64,000 nt of DNA from an uncultured Nitrososphaerota archaeon. GTDB lineage: Archaea > Asgardarchaeota > Njordarchaeia > Njordarchaeales > Njordarchaeaceae. Where the stretch lies: NCBI GenBank assembly GCA_964518475.1, contig CAZFGR010000001.1, forward strand, positions 320,001-384,000. The letters run 5' to 3'. Of this stretch, positions 15,039-53,113 are shown one piece after another. The notes beneath the pieces are model-generated. The model was not told the DNA's origin. It ran no database searches and saw nothing but the letters and a program-made list of their open reading frames with translations. Position 1 is the first letter of the stretch. Each line of letters begins with the position of its first letter. Position numbers and translations under genes: made by a program.

Positions 15039-15533
15039 GTGATGCCGATGTCTCAAACTACTGAGAAAGAAAAAAGTGGCAAAAAACCAGATTTCGTCTT
15101 AATAGATGCGACTAATATGATCCTAGGGCGCCTAGGAGCTAGAGTAGCTAAAATGCTACTTGAAGGGAAGCGAGTAATAATTGTAAATGCAGAGAAAGCA
15201 GTGATCTCTGGAGACCCGCAGTTTATTATAGAAAAATACAAAGATATCTGGGAAATTCATTCTAGAACAAACCCAAGGAGAGGTCCATTCCACTACTCTC
15301 GTCCAGATCTATTTGTAAAGAGAACAATCAGAGGAATGTTGCCATGGAAGAAAACTAGGGGTCGCGAGGCTTATCGACGACTACGCGTTTACTTAGGGGT
15401 TCCTCCAGAGTATAGAAAATTACAACCCCTAAGATTTGAAGAATTAGACGCCACCAAGAGACTAAAATGCAAATGGATTTATGTGGGAGATTTGCTTAAA
15501 CATTTTGGATGGAAAGGAATTGTTAGGTACTAG
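15039..15533 (+). CDS. rpl13: 50S ribosomal protein uL13
   Basis: ILGRL, NAEKAVISG, GPFH, RTIRGMLP. Confidence 0.95.
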   Translation: MMPMSQTTEKEKSGKKPDFVLIDATNMILGRLGARVAKMLLEGKRVIIVNAEKAVISGDPQFIIEKYKDIWEIHSRTNPRRGPFHYSRPDLFVKRTIRGMLPWKKTRGREAYRRLRVYLGVPPEYRKLQPLRFEELDATKRLKCKWIYVGDLLKHFGWKGIVRY

Positions 15534-16417: not shown

Positions 16418-16474
16418 ATGATGATAAAGCCCCGCCTTACTGATTTTTCACATGATGATGTGCACCACCACTGA
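16418..16474 (+). ncRNA. Box C/D guide sRNA; D guide complementary to SSU rRNA GGUGGUGCA (h34 region)
   Basis: Perfect boxes: C ATGATGA 16418-16424, D' CTGA 16440-16443, C' ATGATGA 16452-16458, D CTGA 16471-16474. Confidence 0.9.
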
Positions 16475-16496
16475 CTTAATAAGGGGATGTCTAAAA

Positions 16497-17333
16497 ATGT
16501 ATGAAAGAAAAGAAAAGCTTATGCGATTACTTTCCCGAGTTGAAGAGATCTTTGAAAGTGAGCCTCGGGTAATAGATATCTACTCTGATAAAGTAATTTT
16601 CATAGGCGATCTTCATGGAGATTGGGATGCAGCAGAGAAAATAATTAAATATATGATGAATCGTAAAGGCATTTTCGTTTTCCTAGGTGATTATGTAGAT
16701 AGAGGATACTACTCTCTAGAAATACTAGAACACCTCATCCAATTAAAACTGGAGAAACCAAATAATGTTTTTCTTTTACGGGGCAACCATGAAACTATGC
16801 TTGTTAATGAATACTACGGCTTCAGAAGCGAAGTGCTAAGGAAATTTGGAAAAGACGGTGAGGAAATTTACATTAAGTGTAATGAAGTCTTCGCCAAAAT
16901 GCCTCTTGCCGTGTTGGTTAATGATGGTGAAATACTAGCATTACATGGTGGAATACCTATTGAAGTACCGAGTCTCAATCAAATAAATTCGCTTCCTAAG
17001 AATGATCTCTATGGAGAACGTGATCCGCTTCTTTTTCAAATCTTATGGAACGATCCTGATGACTCTATCGAAGATTTTGCACCAAGCCCTAGAGGGCCGG
17101 GGTGCTACTTATTTGGAAGAAAAGTTTTTGAAGAATTTACTAGGAAGAACCACATTGAGAGGATAATAAGGGCTCATACCTTTCTCCAAGAGGGATATAG
17201 ATACTTTTTTGATAATAAGTTGCTGAGCATATTTTCGGTACTTAGCTATATCACCGGACCTGTTAGAGGCAAAATCGCAGAGTATGTTTCTGGTAAGATA
17301 AAAATAACTAATGTATCTGATTTACCCTATTAG
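16497..17333 (+). CDS. PPP-family Ser/Thr protein phosphatase
   Basis: GDLHG, GDYVDRG, LRGNHE, HGG, LWNDP, RAH, SIFS; the ORF-track start at 16452 lies inside the C/D sRNA, so ATG 16497 is preferred. Confidence 0.93.
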   Translation: MYERKEKLMRLLSRVEEIFESEPRVIDIYSDKVIFIGDLHGDWDAAEKIIKYMMNRKGIFVFLGDYVDRGYYSLEILEHLIQLKLEKPNNVFLLRGNHETMLVNEYYGFRSEVLRKFGKDGEEIYIKCNEVFAKMPLAVLVNDGEILALHGGIPIEVPSLNQINSLPKNDLYGERDPLLFQILWNDPDDSIEDFAPSPRGPGCYLFGRKVFEEFTRKNHIERIIRAHTFLQEGYRYFFDNKLLSIFSVLSYITGPVRGKIAEYVSGKIKITNVSDLPY

Positions 17334-22501: not shown

Positions 22502-22680
22502 GAGTTATTACCTCATACAAATCTTAGTTGACTTTATAAGAAAACTCCAGAGTCTATGAAAAATATATGTGTTTATCCATTACAGTTTATGGAAATCATT
22601 AACTACACAACCTAAGAAGCACTAAGTAGAATGAATTTCTTTGGTGAACATAGAGAATTTAAAGAATAGTGGAGATAATT

Positions 22681-25230
22681 ATGGGCAAGCAATCAAGACT
22701 TGATATGTTCTTTCGACAAGACTCTTCGGGCAAAAAAACTACTGAGATAATGGATAAAAACACCACTATTTCATCGCTAAGCGATATGATAAAGGAATTT
22801 AAGTCTAAAATAAAATTACCAGAAATAAGGGATACTATTAGTAAAAGATATTCTATAGGAGAGATAACCTCTAAAGCCAAGAAAATTCTTGTTGTTACTG
22901 AGAAACCAAAAGTTGCTCAGGCTATAGCGAAGGCTCTAGGATCTGGTAAAGCACGTAGTATAAAATCGCGTTCAAGATCCCTCATTGTGTATGACGTAAA
23001 TTGGAATAATAAGAAAATAACAATCATACCTCTCCGGGGACATATCATAGAGTACGCACCCATAGACAGATTCTCTGGTAAATGGGAGGAAAGCGATCCT
23101 AGACAGATTATTAATCCTTCATCATTACGAGAGATTGTTACGGAAAAATTAATTGCTGAGGTTTTAAGTGCTGAGAGCCGAAACGCCGATCTTTTACTGT
23201 TAGCTACTGATGCTGATGAAGAAGGTGCTAATATTGGATTAGAGGCCTACGAAATTGTGAGAAAACAAAGAAAGGATATTCCAGTGTATCAGATGTGGTT
23301 CATTTCTCTCCAACCCACTGAGTTGAGAACTGCTTTTAATAAACCTATAGAGCCTAAGTGGAATTGGGCGTATGCCGTTAAAGCTCGTAGAATTATAGAT
23401 GCCATGATAGGCTTTTCCGCAACAAGAGAACTCACGGTAGCTTTTAGAGAAGTTACCAAATCATTGCGAATTAAGGCTCTTTCTATAGGACGAGTGCAGA
23501 CACCGACTTTATATCTTCTCTTCTTGCGTGAAAGAGAGATAAAAAATTTTAAACCAAAGCCATACTGGGTGCTTAGAGCACAGTTCCAGATAAACGGCTC
23601 CAGAGCCGAAGGGCAGCACATTGATTCGCCTTTTTGGGACGAAGAAAGAGCAAAAAACGTTTTTTCTAGAATAAGAGACGCACGTAGAGCGGTCGTTAAA
23701 GAAGTACATGTGTCTAAAGAATCGAAGCTTCCACCAACTCCTTTAGATACAACAAAAGCCTTAGCGATGATAAACAATATCTTAGGTATTCCTTCGTCGA
23801 GAGCTATGAAAATTCTAGAAGATCTTTATTTAAACGGCCTAATCACGTATCCTAGAACAGATACAGATAAATATCCGGAAACCTACAATCACATTCCCAA
23901 CCTCAGAGCTTTGCAAAAAATCCCTACTTTCTCATCTATTGTAAGAGATATCTTCTCGAAAGGCGCAAAACTACGTAGAAATGGAACTAGGCTAGTTGGT
24001 GATCACCTTCCCATAACACCAATAGATGCTGCAACACCGGGAGATAAAAGATTGCCTACTCAGCAACATGCAATGGTATATGATTTAATTGTTAGGAGAT
24101 ATCTCTCTCTATTCTTGGAGCCTGCAGAAATAATCCGCTTTAAAGCGCTCATTGCCATTAATAGTGAGCTTTTCGAGTTTTCTGGGACTAGAATCTTAAA
24201 GAGTGGCTTCTATATTGTGTATCCCTACGATAAACCGAAGGAGTCTATCTATGCAGAGATTTTTGAGGGACAGGAAATCCTTGTTGAAAAGGTTTTTCCA
24301 CCCGAGAAAAGGTATACCCAACCTCCTCCTCGCTTGAAGGAAAGCGATTTAATAAAGATCATGGAAACGCTTGGACTTGGTACAAAAAGCACAAGACCCG
24401 ATCATATAGAGACGTTAATATCGAGACGATATGTAGAGAGAAAAGGAAAAACTCTGAGAATAACGAGTATTGGATGGATCTTAGCTGAATTTCTAGAACA
24501 AATATGGCCCGATTTCGTTAAACCATTCTTTAGCGCTTACGTACATGCGTGGATGAGAAAAGTAATGAATGGAGAAATCCACTGGCAGGAAATGGTTCGG
24601 GATGTCCAAGAAAAGTTCCTTAGTTTGTTCGACGAGTTAAGAAAAAACATTACTAATCTCAAAGGAAAACTTCTAAAAGTCTCGAAAGAATATGCTCAAA
24701 AGAATGAAATAATGAAGTGTCCTAGATGTAACAGCTCGGTTATCGCTATACCTAGTAAGAAAGCAAAGGTAAACATCCTAAAGTGCACACACTGCGACTT
24801 CTCAACTATAGTGCCGAAAGCTACTAAATACGTCGCTCAAGAAATTAAGTGCTCAATTTGTCATACTAATGTATTATTACTTAAGAGAAGAGGAAAAGCC
24901 GATATATATCTATGCCCTATTTGTTGGCGTACAAAAGGAATTTGTAGTAAATGTGATCATCTAGAATACTGTGATATGAAAAAAATTCTTGAAAAAGAAC
25001 GAGAAAAAACTATTGTTGGGAAATGCGACTGTGGCGGAAAACTAATTTATCTAGTAAATTGGCGCGTGGTAAAGTGTGATAATTGTAATCAACAATACCA
25101 CTTACCTAAGAGAGGATCTATTAAATTGCTGAAAAAGACATGCCCCATTTGTCAAAAGTATAGATTACTAAGAATAAAAACAGCGAAGAGCACAACATAT
25201 TACTGTATAAAGTGCGGTATTGTGAAATGA
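22681..25230 (+). CDS. topA: Type IA DNA topoisomerase with C-terminal zinc ribbons and N-terminal PIP-box-like motif
   Basis: TEKP, ATDADEEG, GRVQTPTL, ITYPRTD, LGTKSTR; many CxxC motifs. Confidence 0.93.
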   Translation: MGKQSRLDMFFRQDSSGKKTTEIMDKNTTISSLSDMIKEFKSKIKLPEIRDTISKRYSIGEITSKAKKILVVTEKPKVAQAIAKALGSGKARSIKSRSRSLIVYDVNWNNKKITIIPLRGHIIEYAPIDRFSGKWEESDPRQIINPSSLREIVTEKLIAEVLSAESRNADLLLLATDADEEGANIGLEAYEIVRKQRKDIPVYQMWFISLQPTELRTAFNKPIEPKWNWAYAVKARRIIDAMIGFSATRELTVAFREVTKSLRIKALSIGRVQTPTLYLLFLREREIKNFKPKPYWVLRAQFQINGSRAEGQHIDSPFWDEERAKNVFSRIRDARRAVVKEVHVSKESKLPPTPLDTTKALAMINNILGIPSSRAMKILEDLYLNGLITYPRTDTDKYPETYNHIPNLRALQKIPTFSSIVRDIFSKGAKLRRNGTRLVGDHLPITPIDAATPGDKRLPTQQHAMVYDLIVRRYLSLFLEPAEIIRFKALIAINSELFEFSGTRILKSGFYIVYPYDKPKESIYAEIFEGQEILVEKVFPPEKRYTQPPPRLKESDLIKIMETLGLGTKSTRPDHIETLISRRYVERKGKTLRITSIGWILAEFLEQIWPDFVKPFFSAYVHAWMRKVMNGEIHWQEMVRDVQEKFLSLFDELRKNITNLKGKLLKVSKEYAQKNEIMKCPRCNSSVIAIPSKKAKVNILKCTHCDFSTIVPKATKYVAQEIKCSICHTNVLLLKRRGKADIYLCPICWRTKGICSKCDHLEYCDMKKILEKEREKTIVGKCDCGGKLIYLVNWRVVKCDNCNQQYHLPKRGSIKLLKKTCPICQKYRLLRIKTAKSTTYYCIKCGIVK

Positions 25231-25271
25231 GATTATGAATTTCTAACACTCGTTAGATTAGAGAAAAAATA

Positions 25272-25334
25272 GTGCTCCGAACTTAAAGGACTCATCATTA
25301 ATATAATCAGAGATCACCTCCTTCTTCATCGCAC
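25272..25334 (-). ncRNA. Box C/D guide sRNA with guides to the 16S 3' end (GAUCACCUCCU) and to AACUUAAAGGA
   Basis: Minus strand: GTGC-g-ATGAAGA-aggaggtgatct-CTGA-ttatatta-ATGATGA-gtcctttaagtt-CGGA-GCAC (4-bp terminal stem). Confidence 0.85.
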
Positions 25335-25499
25335 ATCTACTTCGACATAATAAGTATAGATTAATTTCTTTGTTGAATTTAATCCCGTATCACCTATCAC
25401 TACGCTTAATCATCAATAATATAATATCAAACTTTAATAACGGGAAATAATTGGTGAATTTAATTACACTCACATTGCGATTAGTAGGTTCTTAGCTTA

Positions 25500-25919
25500 A
25501 TGGTAAACGGATCTAAAGAGAGAAGACTTATGCACGATCTAATAGAATATGCTGAACTAGTAAGAGCTCGAATAAATCTGTTAGAGAAGAGAATAAGGGA
25601 AATACAATCAAACTTGGAGCAAATAGAAAGCGATTTCGAGGAAAGATCGGGTGTTGAGGAATTAGAGGAATTTTTCTCCAGACTTAATGATTCACAGGAA
25701 AGACTAGAAAAAATAAAAAGACTTATTGGTAGAGTCGATGAGTATATTCAGGAACTAGAAATAATTAAGGGACGTTCTGAAGTATATGATGAACTTCTTG
25801 AGAATACAAGCACATTACTAAAAATCGTAGAAAAAGATCTGGATAATATAGAAATAGAAACTGATGAGCTAATTGAAGATATAGAATCTTTAAGAGAAGA
25901 ATTGGAAGAGAGTGATTAA
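25500..25919 (+). CDS. Acidic coiled-coil protein
   Basis: Heptad-rich E/L/I sequence, abuts the downstream gene. Confidence 0.65.
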   Translation: MVNGSKERRLMHDLIEYAELVRARINLLEKRIREIQSNLEQIESDFEERSGVEELEEFFSRLNDSQERLEKIKRLIGRVDEYIQELEIIKGRSEVYDELLENTSTLLKIVEKDLDNIEIETDELIEDIESLREELEESD

Positions 25920-26618
25920 ATGAAAGCTCTAATTCTTGCGGGTGGATTTGGTAAGCGACTAAGACCGTATACAGAAAACATCCCCAAGCCATTAGTTCGT
26001 GTTAAAGGAAAACCTATTCTTGTTCATCAGATTGAATGGCTAAAAAAATTTGGCATAAGAGATATCGTTTTAGCAGTAGGTTATTTAAAAGAAAAGGTAA
26101 TTGAGGAAATTGGTAGCGGAAAAAACTTTGGTGTAAGAGTAGCTTATGTAGTAGAGGAAGAACCACTTGGTACAGCAGGAGCGATAAAAAACGCCGAAAA
26201 TGTATTGCATAATGAGAAATTCTTTTTCGTATTGAACGGAGACATTATCACTGATATCGATCTCAATGTAATCATAGACAAAATCCTGAATAGCGGACAC
26301 AATGTTCTTGGGGTACTTGCTTTAGTTCCTCTTCCAAGCCCCTACGGAATTATCGAAATTGATGATGAAGGAAGAATATTGCAATTTAGAGAAAAACCAG
26401 TACTAAGGAATTATTGGATCAACGCTGGTGTCTATTGCTTTAGGCCAGAGATATTTGAGTATTTACCAGAGAAGGGAGATATCGAAAGAACAGCGTTTCC
26501 AAAGTTGGCAGAAGAAGGTAAACTATTAGCCGTACCTTTTGAGAATGTCTTCTGGAAAGCCATTGATACGCATAAAGATATAGAAGAGGCAGAAAAACTT
26601 TTAGAAAGAAAAAGCTGA
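25920..26618 (+). CDS. NDP-sugar pyrophosphorylase / nucleotidyltransferase
   Basis: ILAGGFGKRLRP..PKPL, EPLGTAGA, NGD, FREKP. Confidence 0.92.
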   Translation: MKALILAGGFGKRLRPYTENIPKPLVRVKGKPILVHQIEWLKKFGIRDIVLAVGYLKEKVIEEIGSGKNFGVRVAYVVEEEPLGTAGAIKNAENVLHNEKFFFVLNGDIITDIDLNVIIDKILNSGHNVLGVLALVPLPSPYGIIEIDDEGRILQFREKPVLRNYWINAGVYCFRPEIFEYLPEKGDIERTAFPKLAEEGKLLAVPFENVFWKAIDTHKDIEEAEKLLERKS

Positions 26619-26636
26619 TGACTTAGGACTTTTCAC

Positions 26637-27239
26637 TTATTGTTTTATTCTTTGTTTTCGCACCATCCTTGTTTTTCTTAAATTATCTTCGCGAATTAAT
26701 TGTTGCAGACCATTAAGTAGCTCATGTAACATCTCTATATCCTTAAAATTCTTTACAAGCCCCTTCTTAAGCAATTCTTTACCGCATTCTCTAACTAGCA
26801 TATTTGAGTCCAAAGGTTCATTATTCTTTTTTACTTCATCGAGTAATATCGCATAATAAGCCAAGGCAGCAAGAGTCCTAGTATTGTATTGTGATAGTAT
26901 TTTAGCAAGCTTCCAAAGCTTGATTCTCTTTTCAGAACTAAGCATATGCGAAATAAGTAGTCTTCCTCTCTCTGTCAACACCAATTCTCCATTACTTTTT
27001 TCTGAGAGTTCCCCCAAAGACAACAATGCATTTACAGCATTGTTTACGCTTGCCGCTTCCACCCCATCATTATATATCTCCAGTACTTCTAGTTTTTTTC
27101 CGAGATTACTTTCTCCTAAACAGTATTTCAGAATGATCAACATGGCAGCTAATGCCCTTCTAGTTAATACAGAGCCCGTCCCTAAAGTTGCGTGCACAGA
27201 GACTATAATCTCAGCTATGATATTTGCTTTAGTTTTCAT
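26637..27239 (-). CDS. Hypothetical protein with winged-helix-like segment
   Basis: LLSLGEL...LVLTERG wing motif. Confidence 0.5.
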   Translation of the reverse strand: MKTKANIIAEIIVSVHATLGTGSVLTRRALAAMLIILKYCLGESNLGKKLEVLEIYNDGVEAASVNNAVNALLSLGELSEKSNGELVLTERGRLLISHMLSSEKRIKLWKLAKILSQYNTRTLAALAYYAILLDEVKKNNEPLDSNMLVRECGKELLKKGLVKNFKDIEMLHELLNGLQQLIREDNLRKTRMVRKQRIKQ

Positions 27240-27536
27240 TTAAAAGCCCCATCTATTATTTTCCAGAAATCGATAAGTTATTTGTTTAAAAAAGAATGTG
27301 ATAGAGAGCTACAGATCAGCGTATTATCCTACTTGAAATTGATCACTGACTTTAGCATTAATCATCTTTATTTATTCATTTAGAAGCTCGCGATCAAATT
27401 TATAAGTGATTATGACCTTGACCTAAAGAAACAAGAATCTAGGTTTAAGTAGCATTGATAGAATATGAAGAAGTTTATAACATCCGTTTGCTCAGAATAA
27501 GCACAAAACACAGAAGCAAGTATAAAAACTAGAAAT

Positions 27537-27640
27537 GCCGGGGTCGCCTAGTCCGGACCAGGGCGCCGGTTAAAGATAGGCGAAACTTGAGATCCGGTGG
27601 CGATTACGCCTCGCGGGTTCAAATCCCGCCCCCGGCACCA
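27537..27640 (+). tRNA. tRNA-Ser(UGA) with 15-nt non-canonical intron at 30/31 (27570-27584)
   Basis: GCCGGGG/CCCCGGC acceptor stem, long variable arm, GGTTCAAATCC, encoded CCA; removing the intron restores CCGGA-CT-TGA-GA-TCCGG; BHB helix CGCC/GGCG. Confidence 0.9.
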
Positions 27641-27658
27641 TTACTTATTAACCCTTCG

Positions 27659-27709
27659 ATGATGCGTACGGCCCCATCTGAGTTTCATGATGTAAGCTGG
27701 CATTACTGA
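27659..27709 (+). ncRNA. Box C/D guide sRNA immediately downstream of tRNA-Ser
   Basis: C ATGATGC, 12-nt guide, D' CTGA 27678-27681, C' ATGATGT 27687-27693, 12-nt guide, D CTGA 27706-27709. Confidence 0.75.
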
Positions 27710-27713
27710 GCTT

Positions 27714-28283
27714 CTACGTGTACTCAACAGAGACTGTTTCCTTTCTTTTTTCACTTATGATCTCCTCTTTTTCAACTATGAGCTTATTATCCACATCAAT
27801 CATTGAACTCAGAATTAGTAAAAACCAAGCCTTATCTCTAAGAGAAAATACATGTAAGCGATGCGAGAGAACTAGATAATAAATCTCAACTCCTTGTCTC
27901 CTATCTTTCTGTTCCTCTCCTTTGTAAGGCCTATGAAGAACCTCCACATCTACTCCCAGAACCCCAGTAATATTGCCTACTATCTTAGGAATAGACTCCT
28001 GAGAATCTATTGGAATTCGTCGCGATATGTTTATTACCAACGCCCTTTCCTTGTCATTGGGATGGGGTTGAATAGTTATAAGAATTGGTGGAAAATGGAG
28101 ATATCGCGGGGGTAAAATAATGAAACGACTTGTTTCTTGTCTAATAACGTAACGTTTATAATTCTCCTTAAAGATGTCTCTGAGAATTTTTTCCAACTCA
28201 TCACCAACTTCTGTTATATATGGAAACTCCTCAAGACTAACACTCCTAAATTTATCATCTTTCTGGGGCTGCTTCGACCTCAT
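27714..28283 (-). CDS. Hypothetical protein
   Basis: 189-aa ORF filling the gap between sRNA and acdB. Confidence 0.6.
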   Translation of the reverse strand: MRSKQPQKDDKFRSVSLEEFPYITEVGDELEKILRDIFKENYKRYVIRQETSRFIILPPRYLHFPPILITIQPHPNDKERALVINISRRIPIDSQESIPKIVGNITGVLGVDVEVLHRPYKGEEQKDRRQGVEIYYLVLSHRLHVFSLRDKAWFLLILSSMIDVDNKLIVEKEEIISEKRKETVSVEYT

Positions 28284-28385
28284 CTAGCATGCCTCAATAA
28301 ACCAATCTTGCTCCAAAATATGTATATAGTGTTAAAATTTCTTGTATAGGAAAAAACTGTTAAGAACTTATGTAAGGTGATTCTT

Positions 28386-29060
28386 ATGTCCCATGAAAAA
28401 AGAGGCCATCCATTAACTGAGGCAGAAACTAAAGCACTTCTCGAAAAATACGGAATCCCCTTCCCTAAAAGAGCTATAGCTAAGAGTAAGGAAGAGGCAG
28501 TTGAGAAAGCTAAGGAAATAGGTTTCCCAATTGTAATGAAAATCTTAAGCCCAGACATTATCCATAAAACAGATGTTGGGGGAGTTATATTAGACATAAA
28601 GAATGAAAATGAGGTCGCAACAGCATGGGACAACATGATGAACAATGTTAAGAAAAAAGCTCCATCAGCGAGAATCGAAGGTGTGTTATTAGAGGAAATG
28701 ATTAAAGGCGGTTACGAAGTAATTATTGGAGGCCTGCGTGATCCCGTATTCGGTCCTGTTGTAATGTTTGGTGGCTTGGGGGGAATTTATGTCGAACTTT
28801 TTGAAGATGTATCATTTAGACTTGCTCCAATAGACGAGAGAGAAGCTGAAGAAATGATGAAAGAAACTAAAGGTTATCAAATCCTAGCTGGTTATAGAGG
28901 AATGGAAAAAGGAGATTTAGAGGGACTCAAAAAACTTTTAGTAAAGGTTTCGCAAATAATGGCAGAACATTCAGAGATACTTGAGCTTGACTTGAACCCA
29001 GTGCGCGTCTTTCCAAATCGAGTCGTGGTTCTAGACGCTAAATGTATCGTCAGTCGGTGA
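28386..29060 (+). CDS. acdB: ADP-forming acyl-CoA synthetase beta subunit (ATP-grasp)
   Basis: SPDIIHKTDVGGV, DPVFGPVVMFG, ELDLNP. Confidence 0.9.
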   Translation: MSHEKRGHPLTEAETKALLEKYGIPFPKRAIAKSKEEAVEKAKEIGFPIVMKILSPDIIHKTDVGGVILDIKNENEVATAWDNMMNNVKKKAPSARIEGVLLEEMIKGGYEVIIGGLRDPVFGPVVMFGGLGGIYVELFEDVSFRLAPIDEREAEEMMKETKGYQILAGYRGMEKGDLEGLKKLLVKVSQIMAEHSEILELDLNPVRVFPNRVVVLDAKCIVSR

Positions 29061-29293
29061 AGATATTGAAAAATGCTTACTTATTTCCATTCTTTTTAAT
29101 ATTATTCGCATGGTTATTCTTAGTCTTGATTATTCCAATTATAGCTAAATTCTCTCTTACAATTATAATGCCTCATAGACTCCTAACAAATATTGCTAGA
29201 GTTCTAATCCCATTAATCACGTTCTTACTTTTCCTATACCTATGGTATAAGTTGGCTGAAATATATATAAACAGACTCTCAACACCTCAGTAA
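29057..29293 (+). CDS. Small 2-TM membrane protein
   Basis: GTG overlaps the acdB stop; two hydrophobic helices. Confidence 0.55.
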   Translation: MKILKNAYLFPFFLILFAWLFLVLIIPIIAKFSLTIIMPHRLLTNIARVLIPLITFLLFLYLWYKLAEIYINRLSTPQ

Positions 29294-29402
29294 AAGAGGA
29301 AATTTTTACCTTATAGGTAAACTAGTCTGTAATAGTGTAATTATTTTTAAGAAGAAATCTAACTCATAGCAAAATCGATTATCATTCATGAACTTTGTTG
29401 CA

Positions 29403-29451
29403 ATGATGAAAAACCCCTTCTCTGATCATTGATGAGGGTTCCGAGTACTGA
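29403..29451 (+). ncRNA. Box C/D guide sRNA
   Basis: C ATGATGA 29403-29409, 12-nt guide, D' CTGA 29422-29425, C' TTGATGA 29429-29435, 12-nt guide, D CTGA 29448-29451. Confidence 0.9.
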
Positions 29452-29524
29452 GCTTTTAATTAACCATATTCTATAAATCTCAAATTAATTAGGGTTAAGA
29501 AATTGGGTCTTTTGGAGGAGATAG

Positions 29525-30700
29525 ATGAAAACCGATCTGTTCCTGATATATTTTGAGACCTCTATTATTCGGGCGTGGCCTCTAGATCAGAAAGGACTCC
29601 CCTTTTTAAGTCTTCTTGGAAAACCTCTGATAGTACATGTTCTTAATAATTATAGAGAAGCGCTAAACATAGGTGACATTTACTTACTCCATAATAAGCG
29701 ATTAGATAGCAAAATAACTGAGGTTCTCTCACAGCATAGGATAAATACTCAACAAATAAGCCTTAAAGAACTTAAAAGCGAAAGAGATATCCTAGCTAAT
29801 CTATTAGAAGTAATCGCACCAGAATCCACATCCGATACTATAACCATTGCATGGGCACATGATATAGTTGGTAGCTGGTTAGTAAAGGATTTCGCAGAGA
29901 TAAATAAGGGGCACAGTTTTTTCCTATGTTCTAATAGAGGCAATCTAGGTCCCTTAGGTGGTATATGGGTACTAGATAGATCCACGATAGTAAATCTTCA
30001 AAAAAAGATTACAACAGTAGAAAAGGATCCTTGGAAGTCTATAGTTCCATCGATTAAAGTTAATGGATATTCGATTCCCGTTTATCCATGGGAGTTTTTT
30101 CTAATATTTCATAAATTCTTGGAAAAAACAGTAAGCAACAAATATATTCATCCAGCGGCGAAAGTAAGCAAGTGGGCTTCAATAGAAGGCCCCGTATATA
30201 TTGATGAAGAAGCAACAGTGCTTTCTTTCGCAAGTATTAAAGGACCAGCATATATTGGAAAAAATGTAGTAATCGGCGACCATACTCTGATAAGAAATAG
30301 TATTATTGAAGAAAACTGCGTAATAGGATGTCACATGGAAGTAGCTAGAAGCATTATACAACCAAAAACAGAAACTCATTCCGGCTTTCTAGGTGATTCC
30401 ATTCTAGACGAAAAAACTCATTTAGGAGCAGGTTTTATCTCAGCAAATTTACGGCTAGACAGAAAAAATGTGCGCGTAAAAATAGGTAACAGAAAAATAG
30501 ATTCTGGCCTGAAAAAACTAGGGGTGATAACGGGTTTTCAAGCAAATTTCGGTGTTTCTGTGTCAACTATGCCTGGTATCCTCGTAGGAAAACGTGCAAT
30601 AATAGGTCCTGGAACCATTCTTTTTGAAAATGTACCTGATGACACTATAGTATACAGCAAATGCGCTACCATTATCAGAAAGAAGGAATCTAAGGTTTAA
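29525..30700 (+). CDS. GlmU-like sugar-phosphate nucleotidyltransferase/acetyltransferase with degenerate N-domain
   Basis: C-terminal hexapeptide left-handed beta-helix with GDS, LGAG, NLRLD, KLG; N-terminal GxGxR motif absent. Confidence 0.75.
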   Translation: MKTDLFLIYFETSIIRAWPLDQKGLPFLSLLGKPLIVHVLNNYREALNIGDIYLLHNKRLDSKITEVLSQHRINTQQISLKELKSERDILANLLEVIAPESTSDTITIAWAHDIVGSWLVKDFAEINKGHSFFLCSNRGNLGPLGGIWVLDRSTIVNLQKKITTVEKDPWKSIVPSIKVNGYSIPVYPWEFFLIFHKFLEKTVSNKYIHPAAKVSKWASIEGPVYIDEEATVLSFASIKGPAYIGKNVVIGDHTLIRNSIIEENCVIGCHMEVARSIIQPKTETHSGFLGDSILDEKTHLGAGFISANLRLDRKNVRVKIGNRKIDSGLKKLGVITGFQANFGVSVSTMPGILVGKRAIIGPGTILFENVPDDTIVYSKCATIIRKKESKV

Positions 30701-30760
30701 ATTTTGCAGAGAGAAATACTCCTCTAGTTTCCTTCTTCCAGTAATAACGATGCATGATTT

Positions 30761-30976
30761 TTAAAGTTTAAGAATAAGCTCGGCTGCCTTTTTCACATCC
30801 TCTTTCATAATTGTTCTCCTTTTAGCATGTTGTGCCAATTCAACAGCTACCTTTGCGATTTTTACAACTATATCTTCAACAATTTCTCTCATAGTTTCTA
30901 CGGCCTCTTTACTTACTCTCTCAGCTCCTGCTTTATATATTAGCCTTCGAATACCCGCTAAAGACAAGTCCGCCAT
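30761..30976 (-). CDS. Archaeal histone (HMf family)
   Basis: GAERVS..A, AQHAKRRTI..EDV histone-fold signature. Confidence 0.95.
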   Translation of the reverse strand: MADLSLAGIRRLIYKAGAERVSKEAVETMREIVEDIVVKIAKVAVELAQHAKRRTIMKEDVKKAAELILKL

Positions 30977-31014
30977 GATGTTTCCCTCTCCAAATTATCT
31001 TGCTTTATATCATT

Positions 31015-31494
31015 TCATTTAGAAACGCATATTTTTGTATTTCTATGCTTCGCAAAAGAAATAGCTTCATGAATAATTCTGCTTAAGAAAGACTTTGTTA
31101 ATTTCTTCTCATTGGTTATCTTTTTAGCAATCGCTTCTAAAATCTTGAATAAGGCATCTATATCAGCATTAGCGGTAGCCTCTAATACAACATAGTTTAT
31201 ACCGATTCGTCCATCGATTTTTGATTTAAACTCCTTTAGTAGCACCCTAGTGTTATCTCTCAGAATTATCTCTTTAGCATATTTTCCAGCAATAGCTAAT
31301 TCGACAGTAAACGCACTATTGCTTAATAGTTCAGTCACTAATCTGCTTCTACGATTGTAATAATATTTAATAATCGGTCCAATGGCATCATCAAATTCTA
31401 TAATAACTATTCCTCGTCCTCCTAAAGCTTTAAGAGATCTTCTCACAGAATCACTAAGTCTAAGTCGTTCTGGCTTCATTATCTTTTCTAACAT
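31015..31494 (-). CDS. uDENN/longin-like domain protein
   Basis: IVIIEFDDAIGPII resembles the F(D/H)xxxGP first-hairpin signature of uDENN longins. Confidence 0.55.
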   Translation of the reverse strand: MLEKIMKPERLRLSDSVRRSLKALGGRGIVIIEFDDAIGPIIKYYYNRRSRLVTELLSNSAFTVELAIAGKYAKEIILRDNTRVLLKEFKSKIDGRIGINYVVLEATANADIDALFKILEAIAKKITNEKKLTKSFLSRIIHEAISFAKHRNTKICVSK

Positions 31495-31680
31495 TCTAGT
31501 TTACCCCACTCAAAATAAGGGAAAAATCACTTTTCTACCCCCTAAGATCTATCAATTTACTAAAAATATCAGATATTATCATGAAAATACTTCTACGTAA
31601 CTTCAACAACATTTTTCTACAGTTTTCCGATGCATCATTAATTTCCAGAGAAAATCAAAAAAGAAGAAGTTGGAAGGTAT

Positions 31681-31795
31681 TGGCGCCGGGGGGCGGACTC
31701 GAACCGCCGACCTCCCGGTTTCTGCCAATTTGTAGCTTACTTATTTAGTTGTGCATGATAACAGCCGGACGCTCTACCAGCTGAGCTACCCCGGC
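31681..31795 (-). tRNA. tRNA-Asn(GUU) with 39-nt canonical 37/38 intron (31720-31758)
   Basis: GCCGGGG acceptor, TCCGG-CT-GTT-A|intron|A-CCGGG; BHB CTGT/GCAG with TAT and AAA bulges; encoded CCA. Confidence 0.93.
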
Positions 31796-31963
31796 AACCT
31801 TTTTCTATTACATAATACCCTCTACTAATTGGCAGAGGTTATAAATTTAACTTTCTTTTACTCGATCTTCTCGCTTTATTTCTATTTCCTAGGTACGGAT
31901 TTTTCCTATATTTAGTTTTATTTTAATCAACGGGAGAATAAGTATGTGAGAGTTTGTGAGGTT

Positions 31964-32377
31964 CTATTTCTTGGCGACGAACTTTGATGATCTTGTAGCT
32001 CCTTTTCCTGGAGCTGAGTGTTGTACTGGTTTATTCGTCGGAGCGAATTCTCCCAAATAGTGGAATATCATTGGAGGCGTTATTCTAATGGTTACAAATT
32101 CTTTTCCATTGTGTATTGCTATTTTTCTTCCAATCATTTCTGGTAAAATAATCATATCTCTGACATGAGTTCTGATTACTTTATTTGGATACTTTCTTAA
32201 TTTTTCGAGCAATTTCCTTTGTTCGGGAGTTAAACCCCTCTTTAAGCTCCTTCTAATACGAGCTGGTGCTATCTCAGCTAGTTTTTCTAAGGGCATTTCT
32301 AATAATTCCTCTAACGTGTATCCACGATAAGTAAACCTTTTCCAGGAACTTGGTAATTTGCTAATATCAAGGCTCAT
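31964..32377 (-). CDS. rps19: 30S ribosomal protein uS19
   Basis: [37 protein letters not shown]. Confidence 0.96.
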
Positions 32378-32495
32378 TGTTCATCCCAACCTTCAATAAT
32401 ACCTATGACTATTAAGCTTTTTCTATTCGCCAGCGTTTATTTTAAAAGTATTCCCTTCTGATTCTTCCAAATTGAATGTTTATTCGGTGCTCCTC

Positions 32496-32972
32496 ATGTC
32501 TGAGGAATTACGAGTAAGAAAAATAAAGAATGGTACTGTAATAGATCATATACCTAGCGGACGTTCTTTAGCAGTTTTACGAATTCTCGGAATAAAGGGT
32601 GATGAAGGACTAGTAGTTGCTATTGTAATGAATGTGGAGTCCCGTAAATTGGGAAGAAAAGATATTGTAAAGATAGAGGATCGTGAATTAAGCCAAGAAG
32701 AAGTAAATAAAATAGCTCTTATTGCTCCAACCGCTACGATAAATATTATTAGAAATTACGAGGTTGTTAAAAAGTATAGAGTTTCTCTCCCTAACGAGAT
32801 AGTTAATTTAGTAAGATGTGTGAACCCTACGTGTATTACTAATAAGCCTAACGAACCAATAAAGCCTCTTTTCACAGTTGTTTCTCGGAACCCAGTAAAA
32901 CTTCAGTGCACTTATTGTGGCACATATATCAACTATAATGATATACTGCTACAATTAGCAGGCAGAAAATAA
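32496..32972 (+). CDS. pyrI: Aspartate carbamoyltransferase regulatory chain
   Basis: [29 protein letters not shown]. Confidence 0.96.
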
Positions 32973-32981
32973 AGTGTGACT

Positions 32982-33614
32982 TTAATAGAGGTACTGTTCA
33001 GTCTCCTCAACAACTATCCTATAAGATACCTCCTCACCCGCGGGTGTTAACTGTTTTAAAATCTCATAGGCTTTTTCTCCGAATTTTTTCCCATAACGCT
33101 TAATTAGTTCTTCTTTAGGAATTACTCTCCTCTTGATTTCTATTACATCACCTGGTTTTGCTCTAAGGATTCTTACTGCTGGATCCGTCACTAGTATCTT
33201 AGGTAATAGATCTGGGTTACCACCAGCATACCTCTCAATTATTTCCTTAGCTTCTTCTGGAGACAACACTCGATGCTCTGGAACTAACCAGTGGTCAAAG
33301 ATATAAACTAATGGGGCGCCTCTGTGTATAAATTCGACCTTGTTTTCTTTACCTATCTCCTCTGCTTGCGTAGTTACCTTATCCAAGGTGGCTATCATGA
33401 TCTCATTGCATTCAAGTTCTCTTGCATCATTGATGACTCTCCTTACCAATTGAACGGATACTTGTCTATCTGTAACGTATACATAAGCTCTAGACTCTCC
33501 TTTCTTGAAAATTGCGACTTTTGCTCGCTCTTTCTCTTGAAGCTCTAGTAATTTATAACCTCTTCCTTTCTCCCAGATTTTCTTGACATTTTCCCAAAGT
33601 ACGTCTATGCTCAT
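32982..33614 (-). CDS. rpoH: RNA polymerase subunit RpoH/Rpb5, long form with N-terminal jaw-like domain
   Basis: [32 protein letters not shown], plus about 100 aa N-terminal domain. Confidence 0.88.
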
Positions 33615-33700
33615 GCCACATCCCATATCTCACTATTCACAATATTGTTATCAAAAAGTGATAGGAGTTATAAATAGATTTTGCGTGCGTAGATTATTCG

Positions 33701-35023
33701 ATGAGTATCAGGGTGAGAAGAATGTCCAAAAGATTACTCGGGCTCTTGTTCATATCACTATTACTACTATCGCTTAACACCACCTTATCTATAACCAGGA
33801 TAAACAGTCAGAGCCAGGAACCCATAATTTTCGTCTATTACTCAAGGGAAAACGAGCTCTCTAAGGGAGATCTAACCCTCTTCTTCCAGAAAATTAATAG
33901 TAGTGGCTTCGAATTAAAGGAAACTACTAGCCTAGAAGATTATGGGACTCTAGAGGGAGCTGATGTCATATTAATCCTAGGCTCAAAAAATCTCAACTTT
34001 ATCAAGAAGGATATATTGCTTAGATTCCTCGTTGAAGGTGGCTCGTTAATTATCGCTTTGCCAACGGAGAGTATTTCTCTCTACAACGACTTAGTACTGG
34101 AGTACTTTTCATACAAAATAGGAGGAACTATTAAGGATAACACCTCATACTACGAGAAAATCTCAACAGTTATTGTTGATAACTCAACTATCTTATCGAA
34201 TCACCCGCTCACCAAGAATTTATCAAAAATTATAGTTCCTGAAGGATTAGGACTTGTATATGAGAACAGTACGAATGTATTCCCATTACCTTACCACGCA
34301 TACACCATAATCTGGGGATCGAACACTACATACATAGATAAGAATAATAATGATAAGAAAGACCCAGAAGAACCGTCTGGTAATAATGTTACATGTTGCC
34401 TTGTCATAGAGCTATATTCTGGTGGTAAGATTGTCATCTTACCTTCTGTAAAGATGCTCTCTGATGAGCATTTATCAAATCCACGTTTCGGAAATAAATT
34501 CCTTGCTTACCGAATAATTGATTGGTTAGGAGGCCGGTACGCGACCATCTATATAAAAGATCTAAAAGTTAGCACCACTTATATTGATCTAGACAATCCA
34601 AATTCTAGAGTAAATGTGAGCTTTGAAGTCGTGGACGAGAAAAACAGACCAGTAGAAAATCTCACTGCACTAGTATGCTTGGTAAGACTTGGTCACGTTC
34701 TCAAAAACTTCACAGCCATTCGAATTAACGAGACAAATTACTATGTGGAGATATCATTTGAAAACCTAACAATTAGTAGAGGCATTATCTACTTAATGGT
34801 GTTGGTGTACAAGCAATTCTATGGATACTATTGGTCAGAAGCTGTAAGACTTTACTTGTATAAGAGCCCACTTCCCGTAACAGGTGCTGATCAAATATTA
34901 CTCGTATTGGGATTTATAATACCTGTAATACTAGGGATAGTCCTACTTGTTGCAACATACCCAGAATATCGAAGAAATAGAGGACGATTAAAGAAAGCAT
35001 ACAAAAAAATCTCTAAGTCTTAG
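33701..35023 (+). CDS. Type I membrane protein with GIFT/GATase-like and Ig-like domains; OST48/WBP1-like
   Basis: Signal peptide, FLVEGGSLII, GNKFLAYRIIDWL, Ig-like domain, C-terminal TM and basic tail; many NxS/T sequons. Confidence 0.65.
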   Translation: MSIRVRRMSKRLLGLLFISLLLLSLNTTLSITRINSQSQEPIIFVYYSRENELSKGDLTLFFQKINSSGFELKETTSLEDYGTLEGADVILILGSKNLNFIKKDILLRFLVEGGSLIIALPTESISLYNDLVLEYFSYKIGGTIKDNTSYYEKISTVIVDNSTILSNHPLTKNLSKIIVPEGLGLVYENSTNVFPLPYHAYTIIWGSNTTYIDKNNNDKKDPEEPSGNNVTCCLVIELYSGGKIVILPSVKMLSDEHLSNPRFGNKFLAYRIIDWLGGRYATIYIKDLKVSTTYIDLDNPNSRVNVSFEVVDEKNRPVENLTALVCLVRLGHVLKNFTAIRINETNYYVEISFENLTISRGIIYLMVLVYKQFYGYYWSEAVRLYLYKSPLPVTGADQILLVLGFIIPVILGIVLLVATYPEYRRNRGRLKKAYKKISKS

Positions 35024-36152
35024 CCTTCTTTTCCTCTTCTTCTCTAATCTTCTTTATGATCTCGGATATTTTGACCTCTTTTTTCCTCTCTTCTCGCTTT
35101 TTGGCAACCTCTCTCTCCTTCCTAGATGCTATAGGAATAATAGCTAATGCTGGTAACGGAAGAATGAGAAATACCACATATACAGGTCTTACTGGTAGAG
35201 TTCTCTCAACCCTCCATTTATCAATATCAAGCACCCATTGAAACAGGTTTATGAAGAATTTTGCTACATCTCCTACTTCTATCCAAGGTATACCGAGAGG
35301 AGAGGTAATATTTGTAAAAACTTGTCCAAATCCGAGCCCAATTATTTTACCGTCATTTATCTTCTTAACGACAAGAATTGGGAACCCTTCTTGCTCCCAC
35401 CTAATTTCATTATCTATATCTATGCTGCAAGCTGTTGGTAGTGTTCTTATCTTCATTAAATCTTCGGATTCCTCTATAATTTCTAGCGACGCTGTCTCTA
35501 GATATATTGGTGCAGATACGTTCTCTAAGAGCTTTTCTTTCAATTCCTCGTCGTCAAAGATTGTAGAATTTTGTAAAATTAGAAGACTACCATTCCCGTT
35601 TACATAATCGTATATTATGTCGCTTTTCTCGTTCTTAGCATAAAAACGAAAGCCCACTGTGATATTATAAGTTTCTATATCTGAAAGAAGATCATTGATT
35701 AAAACCACACTTACGTTGTCCCTAAATGTTTCATCTATGGGAACACCAAGGAAGATGACGTTCCCACCTAATGAGACATAACTCGCTATTGCTCTAGCTT
35801 CTTCAGAGGCATACCTTACATATCCACTATTCGGTGGGATCATAAGAATATCGACACCAGAGAGAAATGTCGCGTTGATTTGCCCTCTTAAAACTGTTAC
35901 TTTAAGAGGAAGCGATAAAGAGTTATTGAGCTCCTCAAACGCTATCATAAGTTCCTTGTAACCGAATAAAGGTGCGTGGTGCTCATCGATAGCAATCACT
36001 ACAGCTTCTTTGATAAATATAGCTTCTTCCGCATGCAATTGTACGACGTTAGAAAAAGCAGTTGTTACGAGAGGAGACATTATCAATAAAAAAATGAGGA
36101 AGACTCTTGAATTGCTCGACATGATACTCGCTCTCTCCCCATATTTTAGCAT
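35013..36152 (-). CDS. Type I membrane protein with GIFT/DUF4350-like domain
   Basis: Signal peptide, IDEHH, VDILMI, YVSLGGNVIF, FFINLFQWV, C-terminal TM and charged tail. Confidence 0.65.
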   Translation of the reverse strand: MLKYGERASIMSSNSRVFLIFLLIMSPLVTTAFSNVVQLHAEEAIFIKEAVVIAIDEHHAPLFGYKELMIAFEELNNSLSLPLKVTVLRGQINATFLSGVDILMIPPNSGYVRYASEEARAIASYVSLGGNVIFLGVPIDETFRDNVSVVLINDLLSDIETYNITVGFRFYAKNEKSDIIYDYVNGNGSLLILQNSTIFDDEELKEKLLENVSAPIYLETASLEIIEESEDLMKIRTLPTACSIDIDNEIRWEQEGFPILVVKKINDGKIIGLGFGQVFTNITSPLGIPWIEVGDVAKFFINLFQWVLDIDKWRVERTLPVRPVYVVFLILPLPALAIIPIASRKEREVAKKREERKKEVKISEIIKKIREEEEKKAKT

Positions 36153-36155
36153 CTT

Positions 36156-36365
36156 TTATTCGTAATACTTCTTCAAGATTTTTGCATAAATTTCTGCTTT
36201 TCCTCCAGTGGGTTCTGCCAGAACCTTACCACACACCAAACATTTAACAATCGTGGATGCATGCGAGAAGATTATCTGCTTATTCGAACAGTCGGGGCAC
36301 TGTACTAACAGGAAATAGGACTTTGGTTTTGGAAACAATTTTCTTAATTTGTCATCCCGCGTCAT
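36156..36365 (-). CDS. rps27e: 30S ribosomal protein eS27
   Basis: PKSYFL.VQCPDC, FSHA, CLVCG..LAEPTGGKA. Confidence 0.96.
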   Translation of the reverse strand: MTRDDKLRKLFPKPKSYFLLVQCPDCSNKQIIFSHASTIVKCLVCGKVLAEPTGGKAEIYAKILKKYYE

Positions 36366-36383
36366 TCAAATCACCCATTGGTA

Positions 36384-36437
36384 TCAGCTAAAGGAATTCT
36401 CTTCATTTATCTAATCGGAGGATCACCTCTTCATCAT
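36384..36437 (-). ncRNA. Box C/D guide sRNA with guides to the 16S 3' end (GGAUCACCUC) and to UAAAGGAAUU
   Basis: Minus strand: ATGATGA-agaggtgatcct-CCGA-ttaga-TAAATGA-agagaattcctttag-CTGA; directly upstream of rps27e. Confidence 0.85.
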
Positions 36438-36619
36438 CTTAACTTTCATGTGGGTCTGCTCTCGTAATAAAAATTTATCTCGTTACTTCTGAGAAAACTC
36501 GCAGGATGCATGGTTTTTTCCTAGATTCTAACATCAATCTATATTCACAACTTATTTTTATAATGTTTTTAAGGACTTGATTAAAAATCAAGCCCGAGGA
36601 CTTGGGGATGTGAATCTAT

Positions 36620-53013: not shown

Positions 53014-53113
53014 GCGGGGGTGCCCGAGAGGTCAAAGGGGCCAGTTTCCTAAGGTCATACTGAGGCTCTGGTGGCGCAGGCCTTCGCGGGTTCGAATCCC
53101 GCCCCCCGCACCA
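53014..53113 (+). tRNA. tRNA-Leu(GAG) with 14-nt intron at 30/31 (53045-53058)
   Basis: GCGGGGG acceptor; spliced CCAGA-CT-GAG-GC-TCTGG; BHB helix GGCC/GGTC; long variable arm; CCA. Confidence 0.92.

Follow-up and report, generated by a model that had tools for sequence, protein, structure and literature searches.

Two box C/D small RNAs of a Njordarchaeales archaeon that pair with the 3' tail and the central-pseudoknot region of 16S ribosomal RNA

What is the function of two small RNAs that are encoded about 11 kb apart and that both appear to address the same two remote sites of 16S ribosomal RNA (rRNA)? The question is raised by a 64,000-nucleotide (nt) stretch of genomic DNA from a thermophilic Njordarchaeales archaeon (contig CAZFGR010000001.1, positions 320,001 to 384,000; hereafter, the window), in which two RNAs on the minus strand, sRNA-A (25272-25334) and sRNA-B (36384-36437), each carry one guide complementary to the 16S 3' tail, which includes the anti-Shine-Dalgarno (anti-SD) sequence, and another guide complementary to the region around position 915, where the 3' strand of helix 2, the central pseudoknot, is located. 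An earlier reading made from the letters of this DNA alone (the sequence-only reading) had described both as box C/D RNAs and had interpreted them as a candidate U3-like system for maturation of the small ribosomal subunit (SSU). Its coordinates and guide strings were found to be correct when we read the sequence. We conclude that each of the two loci encodes a canonical archaeal box C/D small RNA (sRNA) that most likely guides 2'-O-methylation of 16S rRNA, a conclusion drawn from sequence evidence, to which we assign a probability of about 0.8; the U3-like interpretation, in contrast, was not supported.

The source genome (G000) is a metagenome-assembled genome of the genus Njordarchaeum, order Njordarchaeales (Asgard archaea), with 121 contigs, 2.33 Mb, 91% completeness and 38% G+C, and its DNA occurs in sediment and hydrothermal-vent metagenomes. 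Guide pairing was evaluated against a genome of the same genus, G005, in which the 16S gene is partial and the 23S gene complete, and the second rRNA reference was G010, a member of the same order with both genes present; these are the two genomes in which sRNA orthologs and a 16S gene occur together. All site numbers are in Escherichia coli numbering, with 912-918 taken from the textbook E. coli sequence, and the tail numbers agree with published fragment positions. The elements of the two RNAs, all on the minus strand and, unless another basis is given, read from the sequence, are the following.

25272-25334, minus strand: sRNA-A, complete box C/D sRNA (boxes, guides and a 4-bp terminal stem)
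25331-25334 paired with 25272-25275, minus strand: sRNA-A terminal stem GUGC/GCAC, 4 bp
25323-25329, minus strand: sRNA-A C box AUGAAGA, pairing with the D box CGGA at 25276-25279 (sequence and covariation)
25311-25322, minus strand: sRNA-A D' guide AGGAGGUGAUCU, 12 nt, against the 16S 3' tail, N+5 site C1533 (pairing with G005 16S)
25307-25310, minus strand: sRNA-A D' box CUGA
25292-25298, minus strand: sRNA-A C' box AUGAUGA
25280-25291, minus strand: sRNA-A D guide GUCCUUUAAGUU, 12 nt, against 16S 908-918, including the helix 2 3' strand (916-918), N+5 site U912 (pairing with G005 16S)
25264-25269, minus strand: oligo-T run just 3' of the sRNA-A stem, likely an archaeal terminator
25348-25358, minus strand: A/T-rich, putative TATA-like element, preceding the sRNA-A 5' stem by about 14-24 nt
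36384-36437, minus strand: sRNA-B, complete box C/D sRNA (boxes and guides)
36431-36437, minus strand: sRNA-B C box AUGAUGA
36419-36430, minus strand: sRNA-B D' guide AGAGGUGAUCCU, 12 nt, against the 16S tail, N+5 site U1532 (pairing with G005 16S)
36415-36418, minus strand: sRNA-B D' box CCGA
36400-36406, minus strand: sRNA-B C' box AUGAAGA
36388-36399, minus strand: sRNA-B D guide GAAUUCCUUUAG, 12 nt, against 16S 911-921, N+5 site A915 (pairing with G005 16S)
36384-36387, minus strand: sRNA-B D box CUGA
36465-36478, minus strand: A/T-rich, putative TATA-like element, preceding the sRNA-B C box by about 28-41 nt

In both RNAs, the boxes appear in the order C, D', C', D, with an 8-nt spacer separating the D' box from the C' box, and in sRNA-A a single nucleotide lies between the 5' stem and the C box. 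All four guide spacers are exactly 12 nt long, compared to the family expectation of about 12 nt. Each RNA shows two departures from the box consensus, all of them at covarying positions: within the sRNA-A family, changes at position 5 of the C-type box are matched by changes at position 2 of the D-type box, such that AUGAAGA is combined with CGGA in G000 and G002, and AUGAUGA with CUGA in G001, G004 and G006. Using a custom box scanner, we identified 57 C/D candidates of the same architecture in the source genome, sRNA-A and sRNA-B among them, versus one in each of two Markov-shuffled genomes. Across the C'/D' pairs of these 57 candidates, A at the covarying C' position was accompanied by G or C 15 times and by U 6 times, whereas U was accompanied by U in 34 of 34 cases. 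The internal kink-loop variant, in which a C' box AUGAAGA is combined with a D' box CGGA or CCGA and the U-U pair is replaced by A-G or A-C, is present in about one quarter of the sRNAs of this genome; it is a cleanly covarying variant typical of the lineage. Fibrillarin (322 bits) and Nop5 (229 bits) are both encoded, in adjacent genes.

The 16S rRNA of G005 contains both target motifs, GGAUCACCUCCU and AAACUUAAAGGAAUU, and on this same-genus rRNA the match of each D' guide to the 3' tail and of each D guide to the 915 region was confirmed. For sRNA-A, the D' guide forms 12 pairs with the tail (11 Watson-Crick and one GU) and the D guide forms 11 Watson-Crick pairs with positions 908-918; for sRNA-B, the corresponding numbers are 10 Watson-Crick pairs at the tail and 11 pairs (10 Watson-Crick and one GU) with positions 911-921. 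Thus, each guide forms 10-12 pairs, compared to a criterion of at least 9 contiguous pairs, and the N+5 pair is Watson-Crick in all four. The staggered sites that had been predicted, C1533 and U912 for sRNA-A and U1532 and A915 for sRNA-B, were recovered as well, with an offset of 1 nt at the tail and of 3 nt in the 915 region. When guides were shuffled and scored anywhere in 16S and 23S rRNA, the observed score was equalled in 2 and 6 of 1500 trials for the two guides of sRNA-A, and in 26 and 21 of 1500 trials for those of sRNA-B. In G005 and G010, the sRNA orthologs of each genome pair with its own 16S tail. With a gap of about 615 nt between the two targets, sRNA-A and sRNA-B are the longest-range double guides of the source genome, where the other pairs of guides on the same rRNA are 17-160 nt apart. 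The two guides of sRNA-A are also partly complementary to each other (25280-25322, minus strand; AAGGA with UCCUU); hence the naked RNA is predicted to fold guide on guide.

Several observations weigh against the assignment. The assembly of the source genome contains neither a 16S nor a 23S gene, so that the cognate 16S is absent. Contigs of the probable source sample, when aligned to the G005 16S, were short fragments from many organisms and did not yield the cognate 16S; neither target site showed a variant letter in them, which weakly supports the guide match. Among the sequencing runs listed for the two loci, none was an RNA run. The D box of sRNA-A, CGGA, is non-consensus, a departure that is explained by the covariation of C and D boxes, and a terminal stem is not evident in sRNA-B. 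Searches with Rfam at gathering thresholds returned tRNAs only, and at E <= 10 the two RNAs had sub-threshold matches to generic archaeal C/D models, with 22.6 bits (cut-off 38) and 17.7 bits (cut-off 44). Because all of these matches are below threshold, sRNA-A and sRNA-B are not members of a curated family.

Comparison with related genomes separates the two guides. The anti-SD guide occurs in C/D context in all 14 genomes of the order Njordarchaeales. In the rest of the phylum, 20 of 287 genomes contain matches to it, but the matches inspected lack C' and D boxes and a reversed-pattern control gives a similar background; outside the order, this guide is at chance level. Twelve other genomes of the order contain orthologs of sRNA-A, and box-anchored parsing showed its anti-SD core GGAGGTGATC to be unchanged in 13 of 13 orthologs. 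The 915 core of sRNA-A, TCCTTTAAGT, is unchanged in all six genus orthologs, so that sRNA-A with a 915 guide is present in six of the seven genomes of the genus; in other families, this core is replaced. For example, the partner guide of sRNA-A in family f2 targets GAAAGCCGGGG (16S helix 24, or a 23S site) in three of five genomes, that in family f4 targets AAUACGUCCC, near 16S position 1380, and that in family f3 is a variant of the 915 guide with differences at two positions. For sRNA-B, orthologs from 10 other genomes were parsed and an eleventh, in G012, was read. The sRNA-B anti-SD core AGAGGTGATCC is unchanged in 11 of 11 parsed orthologs, whereas its 915 guide is confined to G000 and G002, the remaining nine parsed orthologs having A-rich, unconserved D spacers. 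The inter-box spacers and the flanks of both sets of orthologs vary freely. Since the partner guide differs between families and among sRNA-B orthologs, the conserved module is the anti-SD guide and not the pair: the former is an old, order-wide module, and the latter comes about through a partner guide that turns over quickly.

Within the genus, the partner guide has repeatedly become a 915-region guide. A search with a 915-guide pattern that was too tight for guides of the sRNA-A type identified a third sRNA of this kind, in G003, and the source genome has a further sRNA with the same anti-SD register.

G003, locus L099, C13:~15315-15375, minus strand: sRNA with an anti-SD guide and a 915 guide (sequence)
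G000, C7:24223-24274, minus strand, outside the window: sRNA with the anti-SD register of the G003 sRNA and a different, weakly matching D guide

In the G003 sRNA, the D' guide AGAGGAGGUGAA pairs with 16S 1532-1540, with C1535 as the N+5 site, and the D guide GAAUUCCUUUAU targets A915; the third anti-SD register, GAGGAGGUGAA (N+5 = C1535), is common to the G003 and G000 sRNAs. The spacer of the G000 sRNA on C7 is 15 nt long and might extend beyond the mature 16S 3' end. Altogether, nine 915-region guides were found in the genus (six in sRNA-A, two in sRNA-B and one in G003), every one of which shares its RNA with an anti-SD guide, in three registers at the tail (1532, 1533 and 1535) and two in the 915 region (912 and 915). 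The expectation that the paired-target layout would recur in relatives was therefore borne out for sRNA-A within the genus and for the third sRNA of G003, but not for sRNA-B beyond G000 and G002, nor in the sister families. A GTDB-wide scan for the joint layout, which covered one guide order (anti-SD in D' and 915 in D), returned four Njordarchaeota records with the same sequences as the same-genus loci, plus ten matches without boxes. The recurrent pairing may result from selection or, alternatively, from exchange of the C'-guide-D module among paralogs with near-identical D' guides. Another C/D sRNA of the source genome, outside the window at C1:175350-175400 (plus strand), with orthologs in G002 (L101) and G006 (L100), has a D' guide, AGGAUCAACCGU, complementary to the 16S 5' end CGGUUGAUCCU at about positions 10-20, i.e., the 5' strand of the pseudoknot; three genomes of the genus share its D guide core, ACGGUCC, for which one possible target is the 3' spacer, as in G010.

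The combination of anti-SD and 915 guides on one RNA is new, whereas both target types and the concept of a checkpoint have been published. The closest precedent for the anti-SD guide is sR13 of Nanoarchaeum equitans, whose guides pair with 16S 1405-1415 and 1531-1540 and for which an RNA-based SSU checkpoint replacing the missing KsgA/Dim1 was proposed (Dennis et al. 2015, PMC4644070; Seistrup et al. 2017, PMC5389701). Like sRNA-A and sRNA-B, sR13 is a double-guide C/D sRNA with one guide on the anti-SD sequence (confirmed Am1534) and the other on a distant element of the 16S core. Unlike them, it has A1408 in helix 44 as the partner target, rather than 908-921, it carries the anti-SD guide as the D guide and not as the D' guide, and it addresses position 1534, compared to 1532, 1533 and 1535 in Njordarchaeum. 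N. equitans, moreover, lacks KsgA/Dim1, whereas the Njordarchaeales searched retain it: the RrnaAD family is above cut-off in 15 of 15 genomes, and replacement of KsgA as in Nanoarchaeum was accordingly rejected. Ribose methylation near the anti-SD sequence has been measured at Um1528, Gm1530 and Am1534 in N. equitans and at Cm1533 in Ignicoccus hospitalis, for which the guide was reported as unknown (PMC4644070; PMC5389701).

Guides to the 915 region are widespread; they are listed for Sac-sR101, Sac-sR105, Mka-sR70 and Mka-sR114, with sR105 and sR114 contributing additional registers (Dennis et al. 2015 supplement, PMC4644070). The D guide of Sac-sR101 equals that of sRNA-A except for the last base, the D' guide of Mka-sR70 from Methanopyrus kandleri matches the 12-mer D guide of sRNA-B at every base, and Sulfolobus acidocaldarius also has two 915-guide sRNAs (sR101 and sR105) in staggered registers. 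However, the second guide of Sac-sR101 and Mka-sR70 is directed to the helix 27 5' strand CCUGGGGAGUAC, about 30 nt away, and not to the tail, about 615 nt away. In Pyrobaculum, the paralogs sR56 and sR57 have a guide core, UCCUUUA, in common that is shifted by 2 nt between them, which results in staggered methylation sites, and have a partner core UUCACC directed to 16S G906/G908 in Pae numbering (Lui et al. 2018, PMC6009581); their partner guide is not on the anti-SD tail. The same study found that long-range double guides are seldom kept beyond the genus (PMC6009581), in agreement with the partner turnover of sRNA-A and sRNA-B, and a role of distant double guides as folding chaperones has been proposed, with N. 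equitans sR15 and sR17 as examples (Dennis et al. 2015, PMC4644070).

Anatomy, complementarity, conservation and covariation of the boxes are all observed, and they point to ordinary guide function; transcription, methylation and any effect on folding are predicted from them. Small ribonucleoproteins (sRNPs) would be assembled with L7Ae, Nop5 and fibrillarin, and methylation is predicted at C1533 and U912 for sRNA-A and at U1532 and A915 for sRNA-B. Because the mature subunit buries the 915 region, the 915 guide must bind nascent 16S rRNA ahead of helix 2 formation; the 3' tail, which is single-stranded, would be transcribed about 620 nt after the 915 region. One particle that holds both sites could act as a transient tether, a generic chaperone effect such as has already been proposed for long-range double guides. 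A stronger version of this proposal is that selection in the genus Njordarchaeum maintains the physical link between guides for the pseudoknot 3' strand and anti-SD guides, in three sRNA contexts and several registers, that a single sRNP holds this strand until the last 16S segment is made and thereby serves as an RNA timer for assembly of the 30S subunit, that the arrangement is analogous, although not homologous, to the pairing of U3 box A', and that it may be coupled to synthesis of ribosomal protein eS27 through the rps27e leader; we consider this extension unlikely.

The genomic context of the two RNAs differs. sRNA-A is flanked by the convergent 3' end of topA on one side and by a small open reading frame (ORF) for a coiled-coil protein on the other, and from this position it is probably an independent transcription unit. 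sRNA-B precedes a ribosomal protein gene.

36156-36365, minus strand: rps27e, encoding ribosomal protein eS27 (Pfam Ribosomal_S27e, E = 2.8e-26)

The rps27e start codon is located 18 nt past the D box of sRNA-B, and the gene has an SD sequence of its own, GGGUGAU, at 36370-36376. The order sRNA-B, then rps27e, is kept in 10 of 12 genomes from two families of the order, which makes processing from the ribosomal protein leader likely; in the two others, G003 and G008, rps27e is not downstream and the boxes and the guide are retained. To judge from this arrangement, sRNA-B is probably part of the rps27e leader and processed from that transcript, a situation that resembles eukaryotic snoRNAs hosted by ribosomal protein genes; a cis effect on eS27 translation is conceivable. 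The gene topA (window 22669-25230, plus strand; loci L025 and L026) adjoins sRNA-A in G000 and G002, and it adjoins sRNA-B and rps27e in family f2; these positions of topA point to an approximately 11-kb rearrangement, one end of which is at these sRNA genes.

The methylation-guide reading has to be weighed against three others. That box-like and SD-like words arose by chance in AT-rich intergenic DNA might be entertained for a genome of 38% G+C, in which SD-like words are common, and about 1.5% of single-guide shuffles of sRNA-B score as high as the real guide; yet both guides match in both RNAs, the guides are invariant across the order beside variable spacers and flanks, the boxes covary, and 57 candidates stand against one in the controls. 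Chance resemblance is already refuted by the conservation data, and we regard its probability as negligible. According to another explanation, the SD-like stretch is a cis element or ribosome-binding site: sRNA-B would be a kink turn with a perfect SD sequence that controls rps27e translation (via L7Ae binding, as a standby site or as a decoy), and sRNA-A would serve a short ORF. Binding of L7Ae to kink turns in mRNA leaders has reportedly been proposed for archaea, and both the close and widely kept linkage of sRNA-B to the rps27e start and the 21-codon ORF that begins in the C' box of sRNA-A would fit. Conversely, rps27e has a properly spaced SD sequence of its own, the sRNA-B guide precedes the rps27e start codon by about 55 nt, the retention of boxes and guide in G003 and G008 is independent of rps27e, the ORF in sRNA-A stops after 9 codons in G002, with an SD-ATG spacing that varies with a 3-8 nt spacer, and neither the four-box architecture nor the box covariation is explained. 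The small-ORF reading of sRNA-A was rejected because the ORF is not conserved, and the cis explanation as a whole appears very unlikely.

The remaining alternative builds on the proposal of the sequence-only reading: a dedicated U3-like SSU maturation system would mainly hold the pseudoknot 3' strand and mask the anti-SD sequence until late assembly, with methylation as a secondary function. U3 is a C/D-class RNA of about 200-300 nt, with a 5' domain that contains the A' and A boxes and the hinges to the 5' external transcribed spacer, and with a B/C motif; it guides no methylation and leaves the 3' end of 18S rRNA unpaired, but it pairs with the 3' strand of the 18S pseudoknot and thus delays pseudoknot formation. 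The only likeness of the Njordarchaeum RNAs to U3 is pairing with the rRNA segment that holds the helix 2 3' strand, a property that Sulfolobus and Methanopyrus guides have likewise. In contrast to U3, sRNA-A and sRNA-B are 54-63 nt long, contain a standard C'/D' pair, and carry two N+5-competent guides of 12 nt each with Watson-Crick pairing at the N+5 position; a 5' domain, A/A' or B boxes and hinges are all absent, in a genome whose assembly does not include the 5' external transcribed spacer. The Rfam U3 model RF00012 had no match in the source genome, a result that carries no information because the control was likewise silent in all 14 prokaryote control genomes. On their anatomy, sRNA-A and sRNA-B are not members of the U3 family, and the sequence-only reading stands in that the RNAs are real C/D RNAs, their guides match the 16S of the genus and the pairing recurs, but not in its U3-like system. 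A partial functional analogy, i.e., transient sequestration of the pseudoknot strand, is possible, and the same analogy would apply to many archaeal guides. In favor of a dedicated system, every 915 guide found in the genus is joined to an anti-SD guide, in nine instances, three box contexts and three registers, whereas the same 915 guides in Sulfolobus and Methanopyrus are partnered instead with the helix 27 5' strand; the two RNAs have the longest target gap in their genome; and another sRNA of the genus pairs with the pseudoknot 5' strand. The role is also formally vacant, since U3 and modification-independent small nucleolar RNPs are not known in archaea, according to a 2021 review. Against it, each of the four guides is competent for methylation under the N+5 rule, conservation of the pair ends at the genus (sRNA-A) or at two genomes (sRNA-B), the D spacer of sRNA-B is an orphan in five of the seven genus members, and the usual late checkpoint, KsgA/Dim1, is present in all 15 genomes. 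Furthermore, with 57 or more sRNAs, the guides of which cover about one third of the rRNA, matches to the pseudoknot strand are expected, and the shared anti-SD guides provide homology between the paralogs, among which module exchange could produce recurrent pairing without selection. Taken on these points, a dedicated U3-like system is improbable.

Under the preferred reading, that of canonical methylation guides, no archaeal U3 has been identified, and the significance of the finding is of a different kind. The approximately 57 C/D sRNAs of the source genome offer a first inventory for a thermophilic Asgard lineage; no account of box C/D sRNAs in Asgard archaea turned up in our literature searches. 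The order-wide guides in or next to the anti-SD sequence extend the few measured cases (Nanoarchaeum and Ignicoccus), and they suggest candidate guide designs for Cm1533 of Ignicoccus. The repeated joining of anti-SD and 915 guides offers a concrete, testable case for the long-standing proposal that double guides chaperone long-range rRNA folding.

Other RNA genes were noted in the window. A C/D sRNA at 29403-29451 (plus strand) has guides to both 16S and 23S rRNA and matches Rfam snoPyro_CD with 41.4 bits, compared to a cut-off of 45. Another C/D sRNA, at 16452-16504 (plus strand), has a guide of the GUGCACCAC type directed to 16S helix 34, as do two sRNAs at C1:306762-306975, and a candidate C/D sRNA with a weak match lies at 27655-27712 (plus strand). 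Three tRNA genes, at 31684-31795 (minus strand), 27537-27637 (plus strand) and 53014-53110 (plus strand), are 97-112 nt long and presumably contain introns.

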